This document shows positions 21,950 to 56,663 of a stretch of 64,000 bases of DNA, piece after piece. The stretch is from a virus (lineage: Duplodnaviria > Heunggongvirae > Uroviricota > Caudoviricetes): the IMG/VR virus record IMGVR_UViG_3300042562_001169. The stretch is one strand, 5' to 3'. The notes beneath the pieces are model-generated. The model was not told the DNA's origin. It searched no databases and worked only from the letters and a program-made list of their open reading frames with translations. How positions within the stretch are numbered: position 1 is the stretch's first letter; each line of letters begins with the position of its first letter. Made by a program: the position numbers and the translations under genes.

Positions 21950-22279
21950 ATGAGAATAGTAATCACAGAAAATAAAAGAGATATGTTATTTAGAGAGGAG
22001 TTTAAAAACCTGTTTAATAAATTAACTCCAACAAGAGCCGGACATACCGAGAACATTATCTACATATACTTTGATGAGGTATATGATGATAATGCGGTTA
22101 CAGGGTTGGTATATAGACCAAGTAATCGTCAATTAATTATATATCCGGATTACTTTATTAGTTTAAGAATGTTTGTTTCATCTGAAGAAGAACTAAAGGA
22201 AATGATAGGAATATGTTATGAGGAATTAACTGATAAAATAGTTAGATATTCTTGGATTTGGATAGATAATGAGTTATGA
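21950..22279 (+). CDS. MKIIITE-family paralog (MRIVITENKRDMLFREEF)
   Basis: Tandem array member. Confidence 0.55.
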   Translation: MRIVITENKRDMLFREEFKNLFNKLTPTRAGHTENIIYIYFDEVYDDNAVTGLVYRPSNRQLIIYPDYFISLRMFVSSEEELKEMIGICYEELTDKIVRYSWIWIDNEL

Positions 22280-22605
22280 AAATATTAATCACAGAAAATA
22301 AAAGATACCAATTAGCCTACAAGATATTAGACGATATTTTGAATGGATTGACTCGTGAGGACATTGATTTAAATAAGGATTCCGTATTTAGTAACCAACA
22401 AATAATATTCAGAGATAACAGCGATGACATTTTTATGTGGTGGTCCGAAAAATACGATTTATTGGAAGTTAATAAAGTTATGTGGGAACCACTAAGATTG
22501 TTCTCATTCAGTGGAGAAGAACTTGAAAGAGTTATTCATTGGTGGGTTAAAAATAGATTAAGAATAGAACCGGAGGAGATTAATTTAATTGGTGACTATT
22601 ATTAA
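22276..22605 (+). CDS. MKIIITE-family paralog (MKILITENKRYQLAYKILDD... C-term HWWVKNRLRIEPEEI)
   Basis: Tandem array member. Confidence 0.55.
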   Translation: MKILITENKRYQLAYKILDDILNGLTREDIDLNKDSVFSNQQIIFRDNSDDIFMWWSEKYDLLEVNKVMWEPLRLFSFSGEELERVIHWWVKNRLRIEPEEINLIGDYY

Positions 22606-22656
22606 ATGTCTTTTATTCTGAACAAAAACAATAATAATGTCCGTAATAACGGACAT

Positions 22657-22714
22657 TTACATTTATTCCTACGTAAAAGTGTTGCCAATTACATTTATTC
22701 CTACGTAAAAGTGT
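22657..22714. repeat. perfect 26-nt direct repeat x2 (ttacatttattcctacgtaaaagtgt) with a 6-nt spacer, preceded by the hairpin aatgtccgtaataacggacatt
   Basis: Copies at 22657-22682 and 22689-22714, in a convergent intergenic region. Confidence 0.8.
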
Positions 22715-22777
22715 AATCAACAAATATATTTCATTTGTATAACTCCACACAATGTGTAGTGGAACGCAAACAGAATA

Positions 22778-23056
22778 TTACTTCATATTCTTTAACACAG
22801 CCTCCAACATAGAGATAGATTCCTTATCTTTTTTTGATTTCACTGACTTAGAATTAAGATACTCCAACGACTCAACCATCTCCTGTTTTTTATCCATAGG
22901 TTTGAAAGGGGAGTTTGGAACATTAATAGACTGTTTAACAACTTGTGGTTGATAAACGGGAGGAGTCACGTTAGGGTATAACGTATTATATACCTTGATG
23001 GCATTATCGGACCCCTTAGTGGTTAGACGAATGATTAAGTATTTAAGTAGTTTCAT
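22778..23056 (-). CDS. hypothetical protein (92 aa)
   Basis: Preferred over the overlapping plus-strand ORF 22752-22952. Confidence 0.4.
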   Translation of the reverse strand: MKLLKYLIIRLTTKGSDNAIKVYNTLYPNVTPPVYQPQVVKQSINVPNSPFKPMDKKQEMVESLEYLNSKSVKSKKDKESISMLEAVLKNMK

Positions 23057-23104
23057 ATTTCAAAGATACAACATATTTTTTGTTCTCACAAGATATTTAT
23101 CACT

Positions 23105-23512
23105 ATGGACATACAGGAAAACGTATATAGAATTAAACAAATAATGACTGAAGGTAAGGACGCTTATGTCTCAAGAGCTCGTTCTGACCAAGAGTATGAG
23201 GAAGAATATCCAAAATGGAAAAAAACTATAATTAAACTTTTAGAGATGGAAATAGATTCAAAGGCAGAAATTAACAATGGTAAAATAATAGTTTTGCTTA
23301 ATGGGAAAAACCTTGACAAAAATCTAATTAAATATGATAAAATAAATGAAAGATTATGGTATGATTATTCCTTACAAGAAAATTTGGAAGGTTATATACC
23401 ATACGGTTATTTATCAAGACATTTTAAATACGGACTTCAGGACTTCTTCAAAAAACATTTCCCGGACTATGGTGTTAGAGAACTAACGGCTGCGAGTTTA
23501 GTAAGTTACTAA
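23105..23512 (+). CDS. family paralog, MNLNE-type leader variant (MDIQENVYRIKQIMTEGKD)
   Basis: gatatttatcact lies before the ATG. Confidence 0.5.
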   Translation: MDIQENVYRIKQIMTEGKDAYVSRARSDQEYEEEYPKWKKTIIKLLEMEIDSKAEINNGKIIVLLNGKNLDKNLIKYDKINERLWYDYSLQENLEGYIPYGYLSRHFKYGLQDFFKKHFPDYGVRELTAASLVSY

Positions 23513-23517
23513 TGAAA

Positions 23518-23919
23518 TTATTCCAATAAATGTTTAACATCGTTATAACTTTTATTGTTATCCATACAAAAATCATATAGTTTTATAACACTATCAATCT
23601 CGGGGTGTTTATTTTTAATCCATTCCATCATAACAATATTAAATTTGTCAGAAGGTAAAGATAACATAGGTGCAAGTAGGTTTGAGAATCCGTAAATACC
23701 TTTGACAGTATAACCATCATTTATATATGTTACATTCTGACCGGTCCCAAATATTTTTTTCTTACGTCGTTTAATTCCGATAATTGATTGTTTCCCATAA
23801 GAAAATAAAAAATAACCATTCATACTGACAACCAATACTTCTTCCAACGAGGTTATCTCGTTAATTTTAGGATAGAATACACTAATGTATTTGTCTATTA
23901 TTTTAAGTTGGTCCAACAT
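23518..23919 (-). CDS. hypothetical protein
   Basis: ORF coupled to 23919-24197. Confidence 0.45.
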   Translation of the reverse strand: MLDQLKIIDKYISVFYPKINEITSLEEVLVVSMNGYFLFSYGKQSIIGIKRRKKKIFGTGQNVTYINDGYTVKGIYGFSNLLAPMLSLPSDKFNIVMMEWIKNKHPEIDSVIKLYDFCMDNNKSYNDVKHLLE

Positions 23920-24197
23920 TACACTTTGAAGATAAATTCTTTAGACATATTCTTTTTACACTCAGTTCCGATTGGGAACATACCTTGACTATTAGAAACA
24001 TCTTCACAGTCAACAGCAAGCCAATCAGTAGTCATATGAACCATAAACTTTACTTGTTCCGGTTTCATAGGTTTGTTACAACAAACACATCTCTCGGTGT
24101 GTCCATCCTTTTGTAATCTTTCGTTTTTATCGAAGTTAGGGCTGATGTATAGTTCGGTAGTGTTCATAATAATATCATTTAGATTACAAAGATACAA
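23919..24197 (-). CDS. hypothetical Cys-rich protein (possible zinc ribbon: CVCC...C..C)
   Basis: ORF. Confidence 0.45.
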   Translation of the reverse strand: MYLCNLNDIIMNTTELYISPNFDKNERLQKDGHTERCVCCNKPMKPEQVKFMVHMTTDWLAVDCEDVSNSQGMFPIGTECKKNMSKEFIFKV

Positions 24198-24244
24198 TTA
24201 TATTTTTATTTGACAAAATAACTTTCAATGATTATTATTGTTGT

Positions 24245-24493
24245 ATGAGAATTAAAGCGATATATAAGAAAAACTTAAAGATGAGTGAGGGTAAAGTGGC
24301 GGCACAGATTGCTCACGCAGTTAAGAATTTGGGAATAACACCGGTTGATAGTGATATCATAGTATTAAAGGTGTCAGATAAGAAGTTTGATGAGTTAACA
24401 TCACAGAATGATTGTTACATTCAAACAGATAAAGGTATGACCGAGGTGGAGTCGGGAACACAAACCGCGGCGGCGTGGATAGAAATACAATAA
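24245..24493 (+). CDS. minimal PTH2-family peptidyl-tRNA hydrolase-like protein
   Basis: MSEGKVAAQIAHAV matches GKGKVAAQCSHAAV. ...IQTDKGMTEVESGTQTAAA matches IQDAGRTQIAPGSQTVLGI of Pth2. Confidence 0.55.
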   Translation: MRIKAIYKKNLKMSEGKVAAQIAHAVKNLGITPVDSDIIVLKVSDKKFDELTSQNDCYIQTDKGMTEVESGTQTAAAWIEIQ

Positions 24494-24774
24494 TGATATT
24501 ACCTGCTGACTACACAAAATTAACCCAACCACAAAGGAGGGAAGTTAGACTACAATATATCAAGGAACAGAATAATCTTTGTATGTATTGTGGTGAAACA
24601 TTATATGAAGGCGCACCCGAAAGAATAACAAAAAAACCAATTACTTGGGGTTTATTTCCTCCGGGATTTTTAGACCACCCAATCCATCTTCAACATTGTC
24701 ATAAGACTAATATGACTGAAGGTGCCGTCCATAGTTATTGTAATGCCGTTCTATGGCAATACGAGGGGAGATAA
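24493..24774 (+). CDS. HNH / endonuclease VII-like zinc-finger protein
   Basis: ATGA overlap with the PTH2 stop. CMYCGE ... HLQHCHKTNMTEGAVHSYCNAVL resembles the Endo VII motif DHDHxTGxxRGLLCxxCN. Confidence 0.45.
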   Translation: MILPADYTKLTQPQRREVRLQYIKEQNNLCMYCGETLYEGAPERITKKPITWGLFPPGFLDHPIHLQHCHKTNMTEGAVHSYCNAVLWQYEGR

Positions 24775-24783
24775 AATTAAACG

Positions 24784-24810
24784 AGGGAAAGTAATTTTTC
24801 CCTTTTTTTT
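24784..24810 (+). terminator. rho-independent terminator
   Basis: gagggaaagtaatttttccc followed by tttttttt. Confidence 0.6.
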
Positions 24811-24822
24811 ATATTTATAGTT

Positions 24823-25593
24823 ATGAACTTACACGAAGATATACAAAGAATAAGACAAATGATGATTTCTGAGGAGATGGTCCAATCAGATGCGTGGAAA
24901 TCAATCAAAAAAACATTAGACATTCTTAAAAAGAAAAAGAAAGTTTTAATCTTAAGTTGTTCCAATAGATATAATTGGGATGAAAAAAACCTTGACATAC
25001 CAAAATCAAAGATGATTGCAATGTATCTTAACGATGAGTTAAAAGACTCAGTGTTAATTGATGTTTCCGAACTTAACATTGTTCCTTGTGAGGGGAATGT
25101 ATCAAGAAAAGACGGGAACAGTTGTGGATTACTTAAATCTATGCTCAAAGATAAGAAAAAGAATCCATCCGGAGACCATAGATGTTGGGCAAGTTATAAC
25201 AATCCAAAGGATGAGTTATGGAAGATATCCAAAGAGTTATTTGAGTCAGATGCTGTTGTATTCTTTAGTTCAATTAGATGGGGACAAACCAATATGTTCT
25301 ATCAGAATTTAATTGAGCGATTGACTTGGATTGAGAACAGACACGCAACATTGGGGGAATCAAATCTTGTTAAAGATATTGAGACAGGATTCATTTGTGT
25401 TGGACAGAATTGGAATGGTGAGAACGTAACTGAAACACAGAAAGAAGTTCATAAGTTTTATGGATTCAAACCAAACAATGACTTGTATTGGAATTGGCAA
25501 TATACCAAAGATGTGAATGATGAAACTCAAAAATCATATAAGGATTCACACAAGAAGTTTATTAAAGATACAAAATTACCTGAAGATAAATAA
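24823..25593 (+). CDS. flavodoxin-like-fold NAD(P)H oxidoreductase-like protein carrying the MNLHEDIQRIRQMM family leader
   Basis: KKVLILSCSNRYNWDEKNL and ESDAVVFFSSIRWGQTNMFYQNLIERL resemble the FMN-reductase/Flavodoxin_2 family motifs. Confidence 0.45.
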   Translation: MNLHEDIQRIRQMMISEEMVQSDAWKSIKKTLDILKKKKKVLILSCSNRYNWDEKNLDIPKSKMIAMYLNDELKDSVLIDVSELNIVPCEGNVSRKDGNSCGLLKSMLKDKKKNPSGDHRCWASYNNPKDELWKISKELFESDAVVFFSSIRWGQTNMFYQNLIERLTWIENRHATLGESNLVKDIETGFICVGQNWNGENVTETQKEVHKFYGFKPNNDLYWNWQYTKDVNDETQKSYKDSHKKFIKDTKLPEDK

Positions 25594-26318
25594 TGAACTT
25601 ACGACATGACATAAAAAGAATATTAAGGGAAGAAACAAATAAAGATTTAACTTCGGTAATAGAAATGTTATTAGAGGGATTTGTTAATGACCACAAAGAC
25701 ATTCTTTGTAAGGTTGAGGTTAAGCACCCGGACAAGAGAACCAAACTACCACATTCGGATAATGTTTATGAGAATTACAGAGCAACATTTTATTTAATTG
25801 CTCATAAAGGTGGGTATTCAACAACAAGAGCTCAATTGATGGATAACGTAATGAATGAGGTGTGGGATTTGGTATATAATTATACCGGACAGAAATTAGA
25901 TATGTTTACCAAACACGTAAAGAGTTGTGACGATATTATAAAAGAGAGTAAAGATAATAGTATTTCTGATATGATAAAAACTTTGGGGGTTTCTGATGCC
26001 ATTAAGTATTTTGGGAATTACTACACAATTGAGCCATACTTAAAAGTGGTTGATAAAGTTAATTTTATTAAAGAAAAAGTTAGAGAATTAAGTGATGATG
26101 GTAGTGGTGTTGGTTTACACGAGATAAATGAAGAGCCACTTCATTATAGTGATGAAGATGGGGAGGAACATCAAATAGAATGGTTAGGACTAACAAGTGT
26201 AGACATTAGTGTATATGAAGATGAGTATAGTGGTCATTTAAGGGACTATTATTCTAAGTATGAAAGTTTACCTGTGCAAATAATTGAGGAATTGGTTGAG
26301 ATATTATTAAACCACTAA
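25593..26318 (+). CDS. family paralog (MNLRHDIKRILREETNKD)
   Basis: Tandem array member, coupled start. Confidence 0.5.
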   Translation: MNLRHDIKRILREETNKDLTSVIEMLLEGFVNDHKDILCKVEVKHPDKRTKLPHSDNVYENYRATFYLIAHKGGYSTTRAQLMDNVMNEVWDLVYNYTGQKLDMFTKHVKSCDDIIKESKDNSISDMIKTLGVSDAIKYFGNYYTIEPYLKVVDKVNFIKEKVRELSDDGSGVGLHEINEEPLHYSDEDGEEHQIEWLGLTSVDISVYEDEYSGHLRDYYSKYESLPVQIIEELVEILLNH

Positions 26319-26321
26319 GAT

Positions 26322-26867
26322 ATGAATTTAAACGAGAACATACATAGAATCCATCAGATGATGGGTGTAGTGAGTGAAGATGTGAGTCCAAACACTGTTA
26401 AAACAATAATTGATATATTAGGTATTAGAGATGCTATTAATTATTATGGGGGTTATGAGAACCTTAAAAAATATCTAAATTTGGTTTATGATAGGAAGAG
26501 TGGTAAATGGGTGCACGCGAGTACATTACAGACCAATCCTGTTGATTTAAATACTATTACATCAAGAGAAGATAAGATTGAGTTTATTAAGGATACAATT
26601 TTTACTCAATACTACGGATTGTTTACTTATGGAGATGAAGGTTGGGACGAGAGTGATTATTCTGTGTTAGAGAGTACTGAAACTTATGAAAAGGTAGCAT
26701 TTACATACTATACTGATGAATTAAATGTAACAACATTTTATAGAAATGAGAATGGTGAGTTTTCATCTCAAACCGAAAATGATGACCATAGTGAAACAAT
26801 TAAATATGAGGATTTACCGGATGATATGATTAATAACGCATTTGAGTTTATAGCTAAAAAAATTTAA
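26322..26867 (+). CDS. family paralog (MNLNENIHRIHQMMGVVSED)
   Basis: Tandem array member. Confidence 0.5.
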   Translation: MNLNENIHRIHQMMGVVSEDVSPNTVKTIIDILGIRDAINYYGGYENLKKYLNLVYDRKSGKWVHASTLQTNPVDLNTITSREDKIEFIKDTIFTQYYGLFTYGDEGWDESDYSVLESTETYEKVAFTYYTDELNVTTFYRNENGEFSSQTENDDHSETIKYEDLPDDMINNAFEFIAKKI

Positions 26868-26869
26868 TT

Positions 26870-27328
26870 ATGAATTTAAACGAGAACATACATAGAATCC
26901 ATCAGATGATGGGGATTATCAATGAGAATAAAGTGGTTGATGTTGTTCAAGAAATGGGGTTATACCAAGCCACTCGTTATTTTGGGGGTTATGACAAAGT
27001 TACAAAATTAATGGGGGATTATGTGTTCTCAAATGAAGAAATGATTGATTTTATTAGAGAGGCTATAAAACATTTAGCTTACAAACATAATTCAACCGGG
27101 ATATCTACGTATGAATTAAATATGAATTCTATTCCATATGGTTCTCCTGATGAGGAGTTACATCAAATTGAGTATTTCAACCCGGAGTATGTTACCATAG
27201 ATGTTTATGGTGGTGAAGAGTATGAAAGACACAGAAGTAGTTATACTGAACGATATGAGGATTTGGATGATAATACATTAGATGAGGTTTTCCTGTTTAT
27301 GGTTGACGCAGTAGAACACTACAAATAG
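26870..27328 (+). CDS. family paralog (MNLNENIHRIHQMMGIINEN)
   Basis: The first 15 residues are identical to those of the previous ORF. Confidence 0.5.
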   Translation: MNLNENIHRIHQMMGIINENKVVDVVQEMGLYQATRYFGGYDKVTKLMGDYVFSNEEMIDFIREAIKHLAYKHNSTGISTYELNMNSIPYGSPDEELHQIEYFNPEYVTIDVYGGEEYERHRSSYTERYEDLDDNTLDEVFLFMVDAVEHYK

Positions 27329-27330
27329 AT

Positions 27331-27744
27331 ATGAGTTTACAAGATACCATAAGAAGAATATTAAGAGAGGAATCCTATTCTCCGGCGAGTGATGAATATA
27401 CTCCGGGGGAATATATTGTTCATAAATCAAATCCTATATGGAGAGACAACATAGAACTTACCGGATTACAAACATCGGTGGGGGAATGTTATCAATCACA
27501 CGTCGGTGACGATGAAGAATGTAAACCATCCATATTTGCAACAGATTCATTAGATGAAAAAGATATGTTTGATTCCACATATGACGATGACATTTGGATT
27601 ATCAATACGGAATGTGCCGGGGTTACTTGGTATAAAGACAAACATTTTGATGGTGGATATTACAAACATCATATAGTTACATTCGAGAACATATCACCGG
27701 ACTGTCTTAGATTATTATATAAAGGAACGGGGAAAAGTTATTAA
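27331..27744 (+). CDS. family paralog (MSLQDTIRRILREESYSPA)
   Basis: Tandem array member. Confidence 0.5.
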   Translation: MSLQDTIRRILREESYSPASDEYTPGEYIVHKSNPIWRDNIELTGLQTSVGECYQSHVGDDEECKPSIFATDSLDEKDMFDSTYDDDIWIINTECAGVTWYKDKHFDGGYYKHHIVTFENISPDCLRLLYKGTGKSY

Positions 27745-27812
27745 TGTATATTATAATATACAAAACACAATAAAAACGGGGATAATGTATATTATAGTAT
27801 ACATTTAACACT

Positions 27813-28070
27813 ATGGAGGCAGTATTAAAAATAGTAGATAAGTTAATAGATAAATTCATATTACCTATGGATGATGATATTATGGAATATCACATAACAT
27901 CATATGATGATACAATAGAGATTACATTTTGGATGGCAGGAACCGAATCGGAAGTTGAGGAGGAGATTGTGGAAGAATGTTGGACCGTTTTAAGTACACT
28001 TGGTTCAATACCCTACAGATTTTTATTTAGATTCACTACAGAGGGGGACAATTTCTACGAATACTCATAA
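27813..28070 (+). CDS. hypothetical acidic protein
   Basis: ORF. Confidence 0.4.
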   Translation: MEAVLKIVDKLIDKFILPMDDDIMEYHITSYDDTIEITFWMAGTESEVEEEIVEECWTVLSTLGSIPYRFLFRFTTEGDNFYEYS

Positions 28071-55391: not shown

Positions 55392-56663
55392 ATGAATAAA
55401 TTAGACAAAACATATCAGGACTTACTCCAAGACATTCTTGACAACGGAGTAGTAAAACAAGACAGAACAGGGACGGGAACAATCTCGGTATTCGGAAGAC
55501 AAATCAGACATAAAATGTCAGAAGGATTCCCATTACTTACAACCAAAAAAATGCCATTCAAAACAATCGTAACAGAACTTCTTTGGTTCTTAAGAGGTGA
55601 TACCAACATTAAGTTTTTGGTTGATAATGGATGTAATATTTGGAATGGTGATGCTTATAAGAACTACATAAATAACCCAGCTTACAAAGCTGAATCTGTT
55701 GCCGATTTAATGGGTTCACAAGCAGGTCAATTGGTAAAATGCTCAACACAAGAAGAGTTCATCAACAAAATAAAGACAGATGATGAGTTTGCTAAGAAGT
55801 GGGGTGAATTGGGTCCAATTTACGGTAAGCAATGGAGAAATTGGGGGAGGTTTGAGTATGAAGGTTTCACCCAAGAAGGTAGCGAAACATTAAATAACAT
55901 AGATGTAAATTGGAAAATACCAACAGACCAAATCCAAAACCTAATCAACGACCTTAAAACAAATCCAGACTCAAGACGATTGATGGTTAATGCTTGGAAT
56001 GTTGGAGAACTGGACCAAATGGTTCTTCCACCTTGTCATTATGGATTTCAAGTTTATACAAGAGAGTTGAGTAATGAAGAACGATTAGATTGGATGAGAG
56101 GTAATAAGTCTAAAGTAATCTTACCAATGAGAGACCCTAATATTGAGTTTTCTATGGATGAATGGTTTAGACCATACGGAGTTCCTAAACGAGCAATCTC
56201 TTTAATGTGGAATCAACGTTCAGTAGATACATTCTTAGGATTACCATTCAACATTGCTTCTTATGGATTGTTATTAGAAATAATTGCAAAAGAAGTTAAT
56301 ATGGTTCCTGACCAGTTGATTGGGAATCTTGGTGATGTTCATTTATATTCAAATCATATTGAACAAGCCAAAGAACAAATTGGAAGAGAATATACTCACC
56401 AAGAAAGAGATGAATTGTTACAACAAGAGATGGGTAGAGAAAGATATAATAAGGCGGTTGATGAATTGATGCCGTTCGGTGGGGGATTAAGTGGATATTA
56501 TGAATTTTATAAAATTCCATATAGAACAAGAGAACCTTATCGATTACCAACATTAGTAATGGTTACTAACCCCGATTTAAAGTTTGATGAATATGTTTAT
56601 GATAATTTAAAACTTGTAAACTATCAATCACATCCAACCATTAAAGCACCTTTAAGTAATTAA
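55392..56663 (+). CDS. thyA: thymidylate synthase ThyA, long form with small-domain insert and extra C-terminal insertion (423 aa)
   Basis: DRTGTGT, PLLTTKK, LPPCHYGFQVY (catalytic Cys), DTFLGLPFNIASY, GDVHLYSNH. Insert ...DEFAKKWGELGPIYGKQWR as in the L. casei/B. subtilis ThyA type. Confidence 0.9.
   Translation: MNKLDKTYQDLLQDILDNGVVKQDRTGTGTISVFGRQIRHKMSEGFPLLTTKKMPFKTIVTELLWFLRGDTNIKFLVDNGCNIWNGDAYKNYINNPAYKAESVADLMGSQAGQLVKCSTQEEFINKIKTDDEFAKKWGELGPIYGKQWRNWGRFEYEGFTQEGSETLNNIDVNWKIPTDQIQNLINDLKTNPDSRRLMVNAWNVGELDQMVLPPCHYGFQVYTRELSNEERLDWMRGNKSKVILPMRDPNIEFSMDEWFRPYGVPKRAISLMWNQRSVDTFLGLPFNIASYGLLLEIIAKEVNMVPDQLIGNLGDVHLYSNHIEQAKEQIGREYTHQERDELLQQEMGRERYNKAVDELMPFGGGLSGYYEFYKIPYRTREPYRLPTLVMVTNPDLKFDEYVYDNLKLVNYQSHPTIKAPLSN

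Follow-up and report, generated by a model that had tools for sequence, protein, structure and literature searches.

ORF A, at positions 24245–24493 on the plus strand of a 64-kb window of phage DNA (the window being the whole stretch of 64,000 nucleotides analysed here), encodes a compact PTH2-family protein of 82 aa, a putative peptidyl-tRNA hydrolase. On balance, we think it rather likely that this compact Pth2 frees tRNA in infected cells and that it does so as a stand-alone accessory gene. Its membership of the PTH2 family, which an earlier note on this DNA had proposed, is borne out by two lines of evidence that agree, a Pfam match above the gathering score and the predicted fold.

Family, fold and active site of ORF A

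The start codon of ORF A is the earliest one possible downstream of the preceding stop, and the two sequence blocks that the earlier note had singled out are both present in the translation, GKVAAQIAHA at residues 16–25 and TDKGMTEVESGTQTAAA at residues 61–77. Against Pfam PF01981, whose gathering score is 23, the protein reaches 28.7 bits (E 1.6e-6) and covers profile positions 7–94 of 115. At E <0.1, a phmmer search of PDB sequences returned only Pth2 chains; the one match outside the family, 2ot9, stands at E 0.22. When the query is a profile built from 51 ORF A family members, seven solved Pth2 chains from archaea and human are found at E 3.5e-9 to 8e-5, in alignments that reach chain residue ~94–102 of 115–127. 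PDB 24bt_A, a recent Pth2-like deposit of 127 aa named ‘peptidyl-tRNA hydrolase’, stands at E 1.9e-6 to the phage family profile.

ORF A has more than 400 homologues, and most of the 120 close ones listed are exactly 82 aa long. In a public metagenome assembly collection, the identical protein turns up in 177 indexed blocks, and for the two pairs with unsaturated dS, dN/dS comes to 0.044 and 0.077. Judged from these sequence comparisons, ORF A is a real and strongly conserved gene. Could its shortness nonetheless stem from a frameshift, or from decay into a pseudogene? We reject this reading, since 82 aa is the length common to hundreds of homologues, since dN/dS is low, and since the downstream gene, ORF B, is also a complete member of its own family.

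The AlphaFold2 model of ORF A, built with the family alignment, is confident (pLDDT 92.9, pTM 0.80) and has the Pth2 fold, the prediction by which the earlier note had suggested checking the assignment. It shows the alpha/beta architecture of the family, a four-stranded mixed sheet with helices packed on it, in the order strand-helix-strand-helix-strand-strand and with just two helices. The model superposes on the Pth2 core over its full 82 residues, at 27% identity, and Foldseek against viral models returned annotated viral peptidyl-tRNA hydrolases. What is kept is the beta1-alpha1-beta2-alpha-beta3-beta4 sandwich of archaeal/eukaryotic Pth2. Calling the protein ‘minimal’ is therefore apt, with 82 aa set against a domain of 115 positions. 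Three deletions separate it from cellular Pth2: ~10 residues after helix 1 (a short second helix), ~5 residues before strand 3, and the C-terminal 17–20 residues that form the last helix. The complete ~115-residue domain with its second and C-terminal helices is thus not present, ORF A being ~35 residues short of it. This truncated layout is the norm in the phage clade. A search of 1.84 billion cluster representatives (50% identity level) gave 171 relatives at E <= 1e-3, and among the 150 listed ones, which were aligned, 103 end at most 8 aa from the end of ORF A, with the canonical C-terminal helix kept by a handful only.

K17, D62 and T66 of ORF A align with K18, D86 and T90 of S. solfataricus Pth2 (1xty), which we take to be the catalytic residues of the Sulfolobus enzyme; mutagenesis by Fromant et al. 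in 2005 reportedly identified these three. Across the 150 representatives and ORF A, K17 is found in 147 of 151 sequences, H24 in 146, G64 in 144 and D62 in all 148 that are ungapped at this position. T66 occurs in 137 of the 150 representatives plus ORF A, with Ser in 6 more, and K17 and D62 are invariant in two further family alignments. We predict K17, D62 and T66 to be the catalytic residues of ORF A. The most strictly kept residues are the Pth2 active-site positions together with the GK..AQ..H and D.G.TE..GT.T motifs, which points to catalysis of this type having been retained.

Possible roles in the infected cell

Bacterial hosts normally rely on Pth1, which is unrelated to Pth2. Yet ORF A, a member of the archaeal/eukaryotic Pth2 family, is encoded by a phage of bacteria, the bacterial host being indicated by an SLT transglycosylase in the window and by a sigma-70 region 2 gene, Amidase_2 and SmpB in relatives. 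A phage with an unrelated Pth2 of its own suggests that large phages are limited, during infection, by the accumulation of peptidyl-tRNA or by how much tRNA is available. We infer an enzymatic activity, its substrate and a benefit to the phage as follows. Going by sequence and model, ORF A is probably an active peptidyl-tRNA hydrolase; its activity would return free tRNA to the pool of infected cells, in parallel to host Pth1, and the recycling of peptidyl-tRNA (or of N-acyl-aminoacyl-tRNA) would keep tRNA available during infection. Such recycling would be the most economical reading of its role.

Could the same chemistry serve in counter-defence? ORF A might strip N-acyl groups from aminoacyl-tRNAs poisoned by GNAT-type toxins (TacT/AtaT-like abortive infection), or, together with ribosome-rescue factors, free peptides from tRNAs that tRNA-targeting defences have damaged or stalled. 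We consider this possible, albeit unlikely; it refines the role proposed in the main explanation and is compatible with it. Bacterial Pth is reported to detoxify the products of a tRNA-acetylating toxin (PMC9241777), and Iyer et al. have proposed that jumbo-phage PTH2 acts in ribosome rescue after tRNA cleavage (PMC7824862). Genes with fitting functions are also found nearby in relatives of the phage. An Acb1-family (anti-CBASS) 2H phosphoesterase adjoins Pth2 or ORF B in sister strains; such genes, above the gathering score of 27 for PF23474 with 33.6 and 31.1 bits, lie beside Pth2 and/or ORF B genes in L009 (3505–4071), L010 (3253–3819), L013 (5852–6418) and L092–L094 (4433–4993). In one ~430-kb phage lineage, Pth2 and an SmpB gene (Pfam 166 bits) overlap at the 3′ end of the former (L034 5201–5686, L035 5234–5698, L037 5234–5686). 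Pseudaeromonas phage KLEP7 carries CCA-adding enzyme genes three and four genes downstream of its Pth2 gene, and a further locus, L006, has a T4-type RNA ligase ~4.5 kb away. As an observation in its own right, SmpB and Pth2 back to back put two ribosome-rescue or tRNA-recycling functions side by side; no tmRNA gene was found within these three 10-kb loci.

However, each of these associations is confined to one lineage. In a comparison of four genes on each side of Pth2 at 63 IMG/VR loci (481 genes in 352 clusters), no neighbour is conserved across divergent lineages. A Pfam census of 149 neighbour representatives gave at most 3 members for each listed family; Acb1, NAD-salvage, ADP-ribosyl and Nudix genes are scattered among them, several of these associations being single-lineage as well. 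The window itself contains no Acb1, SmpB, RNA ligase or tRNA gene, nor any other recognisable translation or tRNA-repair gene among its ~111 ORFs, ~18 of which have a Pfam family.

Pth2 lies inside phage tRNA clusters at eight loci (L031, L042, L044, L053, L054, L055, L064 and L066), but we rejected an association with tRNA arrays as evidence of its role, because the unrelated ORF B family, used as a control at 80 loci, is found there equally often. Any tRNA gene is present at 17 of 70 Pth2 loci versus 21 of 80 control loci, and a tRNA gene within 1 kb at 8 of 70 versus 11 of 80 (Fisher p 0.81). Overall, tRNA genes occur in about a quarter of the 10-kb loci of either gene family (L013–L162), and in 11–14% of the loci one lies within 1 kb. 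This probably shows where such phages place their small accessory genes in general, apparently in variable regions that also hold the tRNA genes. As no neighbour is conserved and the tRNA link is lost against the control, the biological role of ORF A is one that we infer. The earlier note had suggested that the enzyme could safeguard translation during an attack on host tRNA or salvage drop-off products; for both suggestions, the evidence from gene context is weak.

It is tempting to go one step further and to see in the 82-aa core a dedicated anti-defence enzyme within a fast-turnover counter-defence island, with Acb1 alongside in sister strains. Such an enzyme would rid the cell of aminoacyl-tRNAs that abortive-infection toxins of the host have N-acylated or blocked in another way, and the loss of helices would represent substrate specialisation or escape from a host inhibitor. 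We regard this as improbable. If true, however, the widespread family, including ORF15.3 of Vibrio phage ICP1, would form a new anti-defence class acting on the tRNA pool.

About equally doubtful, in our view, is that the truncated protein has drifted, either to another substrate, for example some other ester on a nucleotide or at the 3′ end of RNA, or to a role without catalysis such as the binding of a host factor. Human Pth2/Bit1 has been reported to have a second, non-enzymatic role. ORF A has lost two helices, and its calculated pI of 6.55 is near neutral, whereas a tRNA binder might be expected to have a basic surface. It also fails both NCBIfam equivalog models, with 31.7 bits against a cut-off of 126 for NF003314 and 26.4 against 82 for TIGR00283. 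Moreover, its fold is shared with DUF2000 (Atu0240, PDB 2gax), a family of unknown function, although structural identity is only 11% and DUF2000 is absent from the Pfam matches of ORF A up to E = 1, so that the protein is no member of that family by sequence. Truncation, the sub-equivalog score and the pI make the transfer of function somewhat risky, even if Pth2 membership is secure at the level of Pfam and fold. Against drift stand the complete superposition on the Pth2 core and the fact that conservation in very divergent members is strictest at the active-site positions and motifs. A peptidyl-tRNA hydrolase is the preferred reading.

ORF B, the gene junction and the variable region

The best sigma-70-like promoter within 23400–25000, TTGACA-17 nt-TATTAT, lies directly upstream of ORF A on the plus strand (24210–24238) and agrees with the consensus at 11 of 12 positions; its assignment is by consensus match only. 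The ATG of ORF A follows the −10 element after 6 nt, and a Shine-Dalgarno sequence is not apparent. The ORF A mRNA may therefore be leaderless or nearly so, with a transcription start deduced from the consensus match. The promoter is kept in the sister strains L009 and L010 despite different upstream genes. On the other side of the gene pair, 3′ of ORF B, an intrinsic-terminator-like hairpin on the plus strand (24783–24812; GAGGGAAAG-TAAT-TTTTCCCTT, a stem of 9 pairs, followed by a T run) may end transcription; the region holds 4 terminator-like sites versus 0.6 expected from shuffles. With one promoter in front and one terminator behind, the gene pair looks like a small self-contained transcription unit.

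The two genes meet at TAATGA, where the TAA stop of ORF A (24491–24493) runs into the ATG of ORF B (24493–24495) and the TGA at 24494–24496 provides a second in-frame stop for ORF A. The letters ATGA, which the earlier note had described as an overlap, are thus there, but the genes share a single base (TAATG) and not the classic 4 nt. An alternative ORF B start at the upstream GTG 24475 was rejected in favour of the ATG at 24493, on which homologue N-termini, the PHROG alignment and gene calls in sister contigs agree. ORF B has no clear Shine-Dalgarno sequence.

ORF B (24493–24774, plus strand) encodes a free-standing HNH (His-Me finger) nuclease of 93 aa that falls into phrog_14729, a group of unknown function (E 2e-29), and is related to Endo VII. 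Matches to the Endo VII PHROGs are weaker (phrog_423, E 2.5e-6), and Pfam Endonuclease_7 (PF02945) scores 18.3 bits over residues 64–87 only, below its gathering score of 23.6, even though some close homologues carry a precomputed PF02945 match. The description of ORF B as an Endo VII-like HNH protein hence survives as an HNH nuclease related to Endo VII, albeit one below the Pfam threshold for that family. Its motif reads C30-x-x-C33 ... H65-x-x-H68-[C/D/N/S]-H70 ... H80-x-x-C83-N84. What the earlier note had given as C-x-x-C-N is really H-x-x-C-N, with the CxxC located upstream of HxH. C30, C33, H65, H68, H70, H80, C83 and N84 are invariant in 37 homologues and are putative zinc-binding or catalytic residues.

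The structure model of ORF B (pLDDT 95.6) has the features of the HNH/His-Me superfamily, namely a beta-beta-alpha-metal fold, a catalytic His, a conserved Asn and a structural Zn site. T4 Endo VII (1e7d) has the highest identity among the top six structural matches, 28% over 61 aligned residues. Sequence and model together support an HNH nuclease related to Endo VII. With 93 aa against the 157 aa of the T4 enzyme, however, ORF B has no counterpart of the helical part by which Endo VII dimerises and which makes it a junction resolvase, and the dimeric architecture of ~157 aa with swapped helical domains is not found in it. The second Zn pair also differs, being C-x-x-C in T4 Endo VII and H-x-x-C in ORF B. 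Members of the ORF B family occur in 130 phage records, mostly in lineages such as Klebsiella, Rhizobium and Pseudomonas phages, and the family is spread through N4-like and other phages.

Do the two genes then work together? The one-base TAATG overlap, the missing Shine-Dalgarno sequence of ORF B and the single promoter and terminator would fit a translationally coupled hydrolase-nuclease module, as the earlier note had suggested, but we consider such a module very improbable, since strains with identical or 99% identical Pth2 have genes inserted before ORF B, distant Pth2 loci (L004, L005 and L006) have downstream genes unrelated to it, and most phage lineages with an ORF B homologue gave no match to ORF A in the same collection, the organism lists overlapping in Vibrio only. 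In L010, whose Pth2 is identical, the Acb1-family gene (PF23474) sits exactly between ORF A and ORF B; in L009, also with an identical Pth2, four genes including Acb1 do so; and in L013 (99% identical Pth2) a 107-aa gene separates the two, with the Acb1-family gene following ORF B. The pairing is conserved neither in sister strains nor in distant relatives, and the module is already contradicted by these comparative data, which mark ORF B as an incidental neighbour. On the preferred reading, ORF A would be a stand-alone accessory gene in a variable region that has its own promoter and would be transcribed together with whatever small genes lie 3′ of it, in this strain the unrelated HNH nuclease ORF B.

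The junction between ORF A and ORF B appears as a hot spot of gene insertion. On the 5′ side of ORF A, two divergently oriented minus-strand ORFs (133 and 92 aa, 23518–24197) are replaced in L009 and L010, in the latter by a NUMOD4/HNH_3 homing-type endonuclease. With upstream and downstream genes differing among sister strains, both flanks of Pth2 are variable.

The source of the window is a jumbo bacteriophage with a genome of at least ~270 kb: the exact ORF B sequence is present on a 272-kb contig, and IMG/VR viral contigs of 215–434 kb carry Pth2 genes identical or close to ORF A. A megablast of positions 22000–28000 found no near-identical DNA in sequenced phages; the best GenBank match to ORF A at the protein level is an unannotated 635-kb uncultured phage (67% identity), and homologues in cultured phages come from Aeromonas, Shewanella and Vibrio phages, ICP1 among them. 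The window has 32% G+C and mostly small ORFs. Its recognisable families are thymidylate synthase, SPFH, ClpP, FKBP, SLT, a non-specific endonuclease, two metallophosphatases, a nitroreductase, a GT2 glycosyltransferase and a few DUFs.

Several features of the window are worth recording for themselves. Six plus-strand genes between 23105 and 27744 (starts at 23105, 24823, 25593, 26322, 26870 and 27331) have in common an N-terminal motif of ~14 residues, M-N/D-L/I-x-E/D-D/N-I/V-x-R-I-x-x-M/I-M/L, which might serve all six as a leader or targeting peptide or else mark a recombination-prone paralogue family. In their C-terminal parts, too, those at 25593, 26322 and 26870 are distantly paralogous (26–28% identity), and an exact DNA repeat of 45 bp (26321–26365 and 26869–26913) spans two of the six gene starts. 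Two tandem 109-aa paralogues at 21950–22605, both beginning M-[RK]-I-[VL]-ITENKR, match no family. The thymidylate synthase gene (55392–56663) encodes 423 aa and matches the 266-position Pfam profile in two stretches, implying an insertion of ~150 residues.

Comparison with known Pth2 systems

Finally, we would like to place ORF A among the Pth2 proteins already known. The cellular enzymes of PF01981, such as those of P. horikoshii (1wn2), S. solfataricus (1xty) and human (PTRH2/Bit1, 1q7s), are 115–123 aa long compared with 82 aa in ORF A. In phages, Pth2 was reported in 2013 as ORF188 of Klebsiella phage RaK2 (PMC3622015), whose protein is a structural match to ORF A in the Foldseek comparison with viral models, and Iyer et al. 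described PTH2 across two jumbo-phage groups in 2021 (PMC7824862). The novelty that had been implied for a phage Pth2 was thus overstated: such proteins are in the literature and in GenBank annotations, and tRNA recycling or ribosome rescue has already been suggested for them (PMC3622015, PMC7824862). Full-text literature searches found no published experimental test of any phage Pth2.

Among GenBank-annotated proteins, KLEP7 gp109 (93 aa) and S14_92 of Shewanella phage 1/4 (112 aa) are 43–46% identical to ORF A (tblastn), the former having the same truncated layout. A further homologue has gone by as a hypothetical protein: ORF15.3 of Vibrio phage ICP1 (QFR59207.1; 39% identity over 98% of the query, E 6e-10, tblastn), encoded at 2501–2788 of L003, which corresponds to 87768–88055 of ICP1_2017_F_Mathbaria (MN419153.1). 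It has the same motifs as ORF A and, with 95 aa, a longer helix-1/loop region. At 21.7 bits it falls just below the Pfam cut-off of 23, which is probably why it was left unannotated. ICP1 and Vibrio cholerae offer a genetically tractable system with a compact Pth2 homologue.

The practical gain from this work is modest, in that it secures the Pth2 annotation, excludes a hydrolase-nuclease module and points to the homologue in ICP1. The clade itself is very abundant in metagenomes, and its core of 82 aa, two helices short of the cellular one, is apparently the smallest Pth2 in nature, making it suitable for asking what Pth2 minimally needs for substrate binding and cleavage. BFVD holds many viral peptidyl-tRNA hydrolases of 107 to 258 aa, next to which ORF A is at the short extreme. 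Phage Pth2 as such is already known; to it, ORF A adds a member at the short end of the family. It comes from uncultured phages whose Pth2 proteins form a clade apart from the annotated ones, very abundant and with a length of 82 aa in almost every member.
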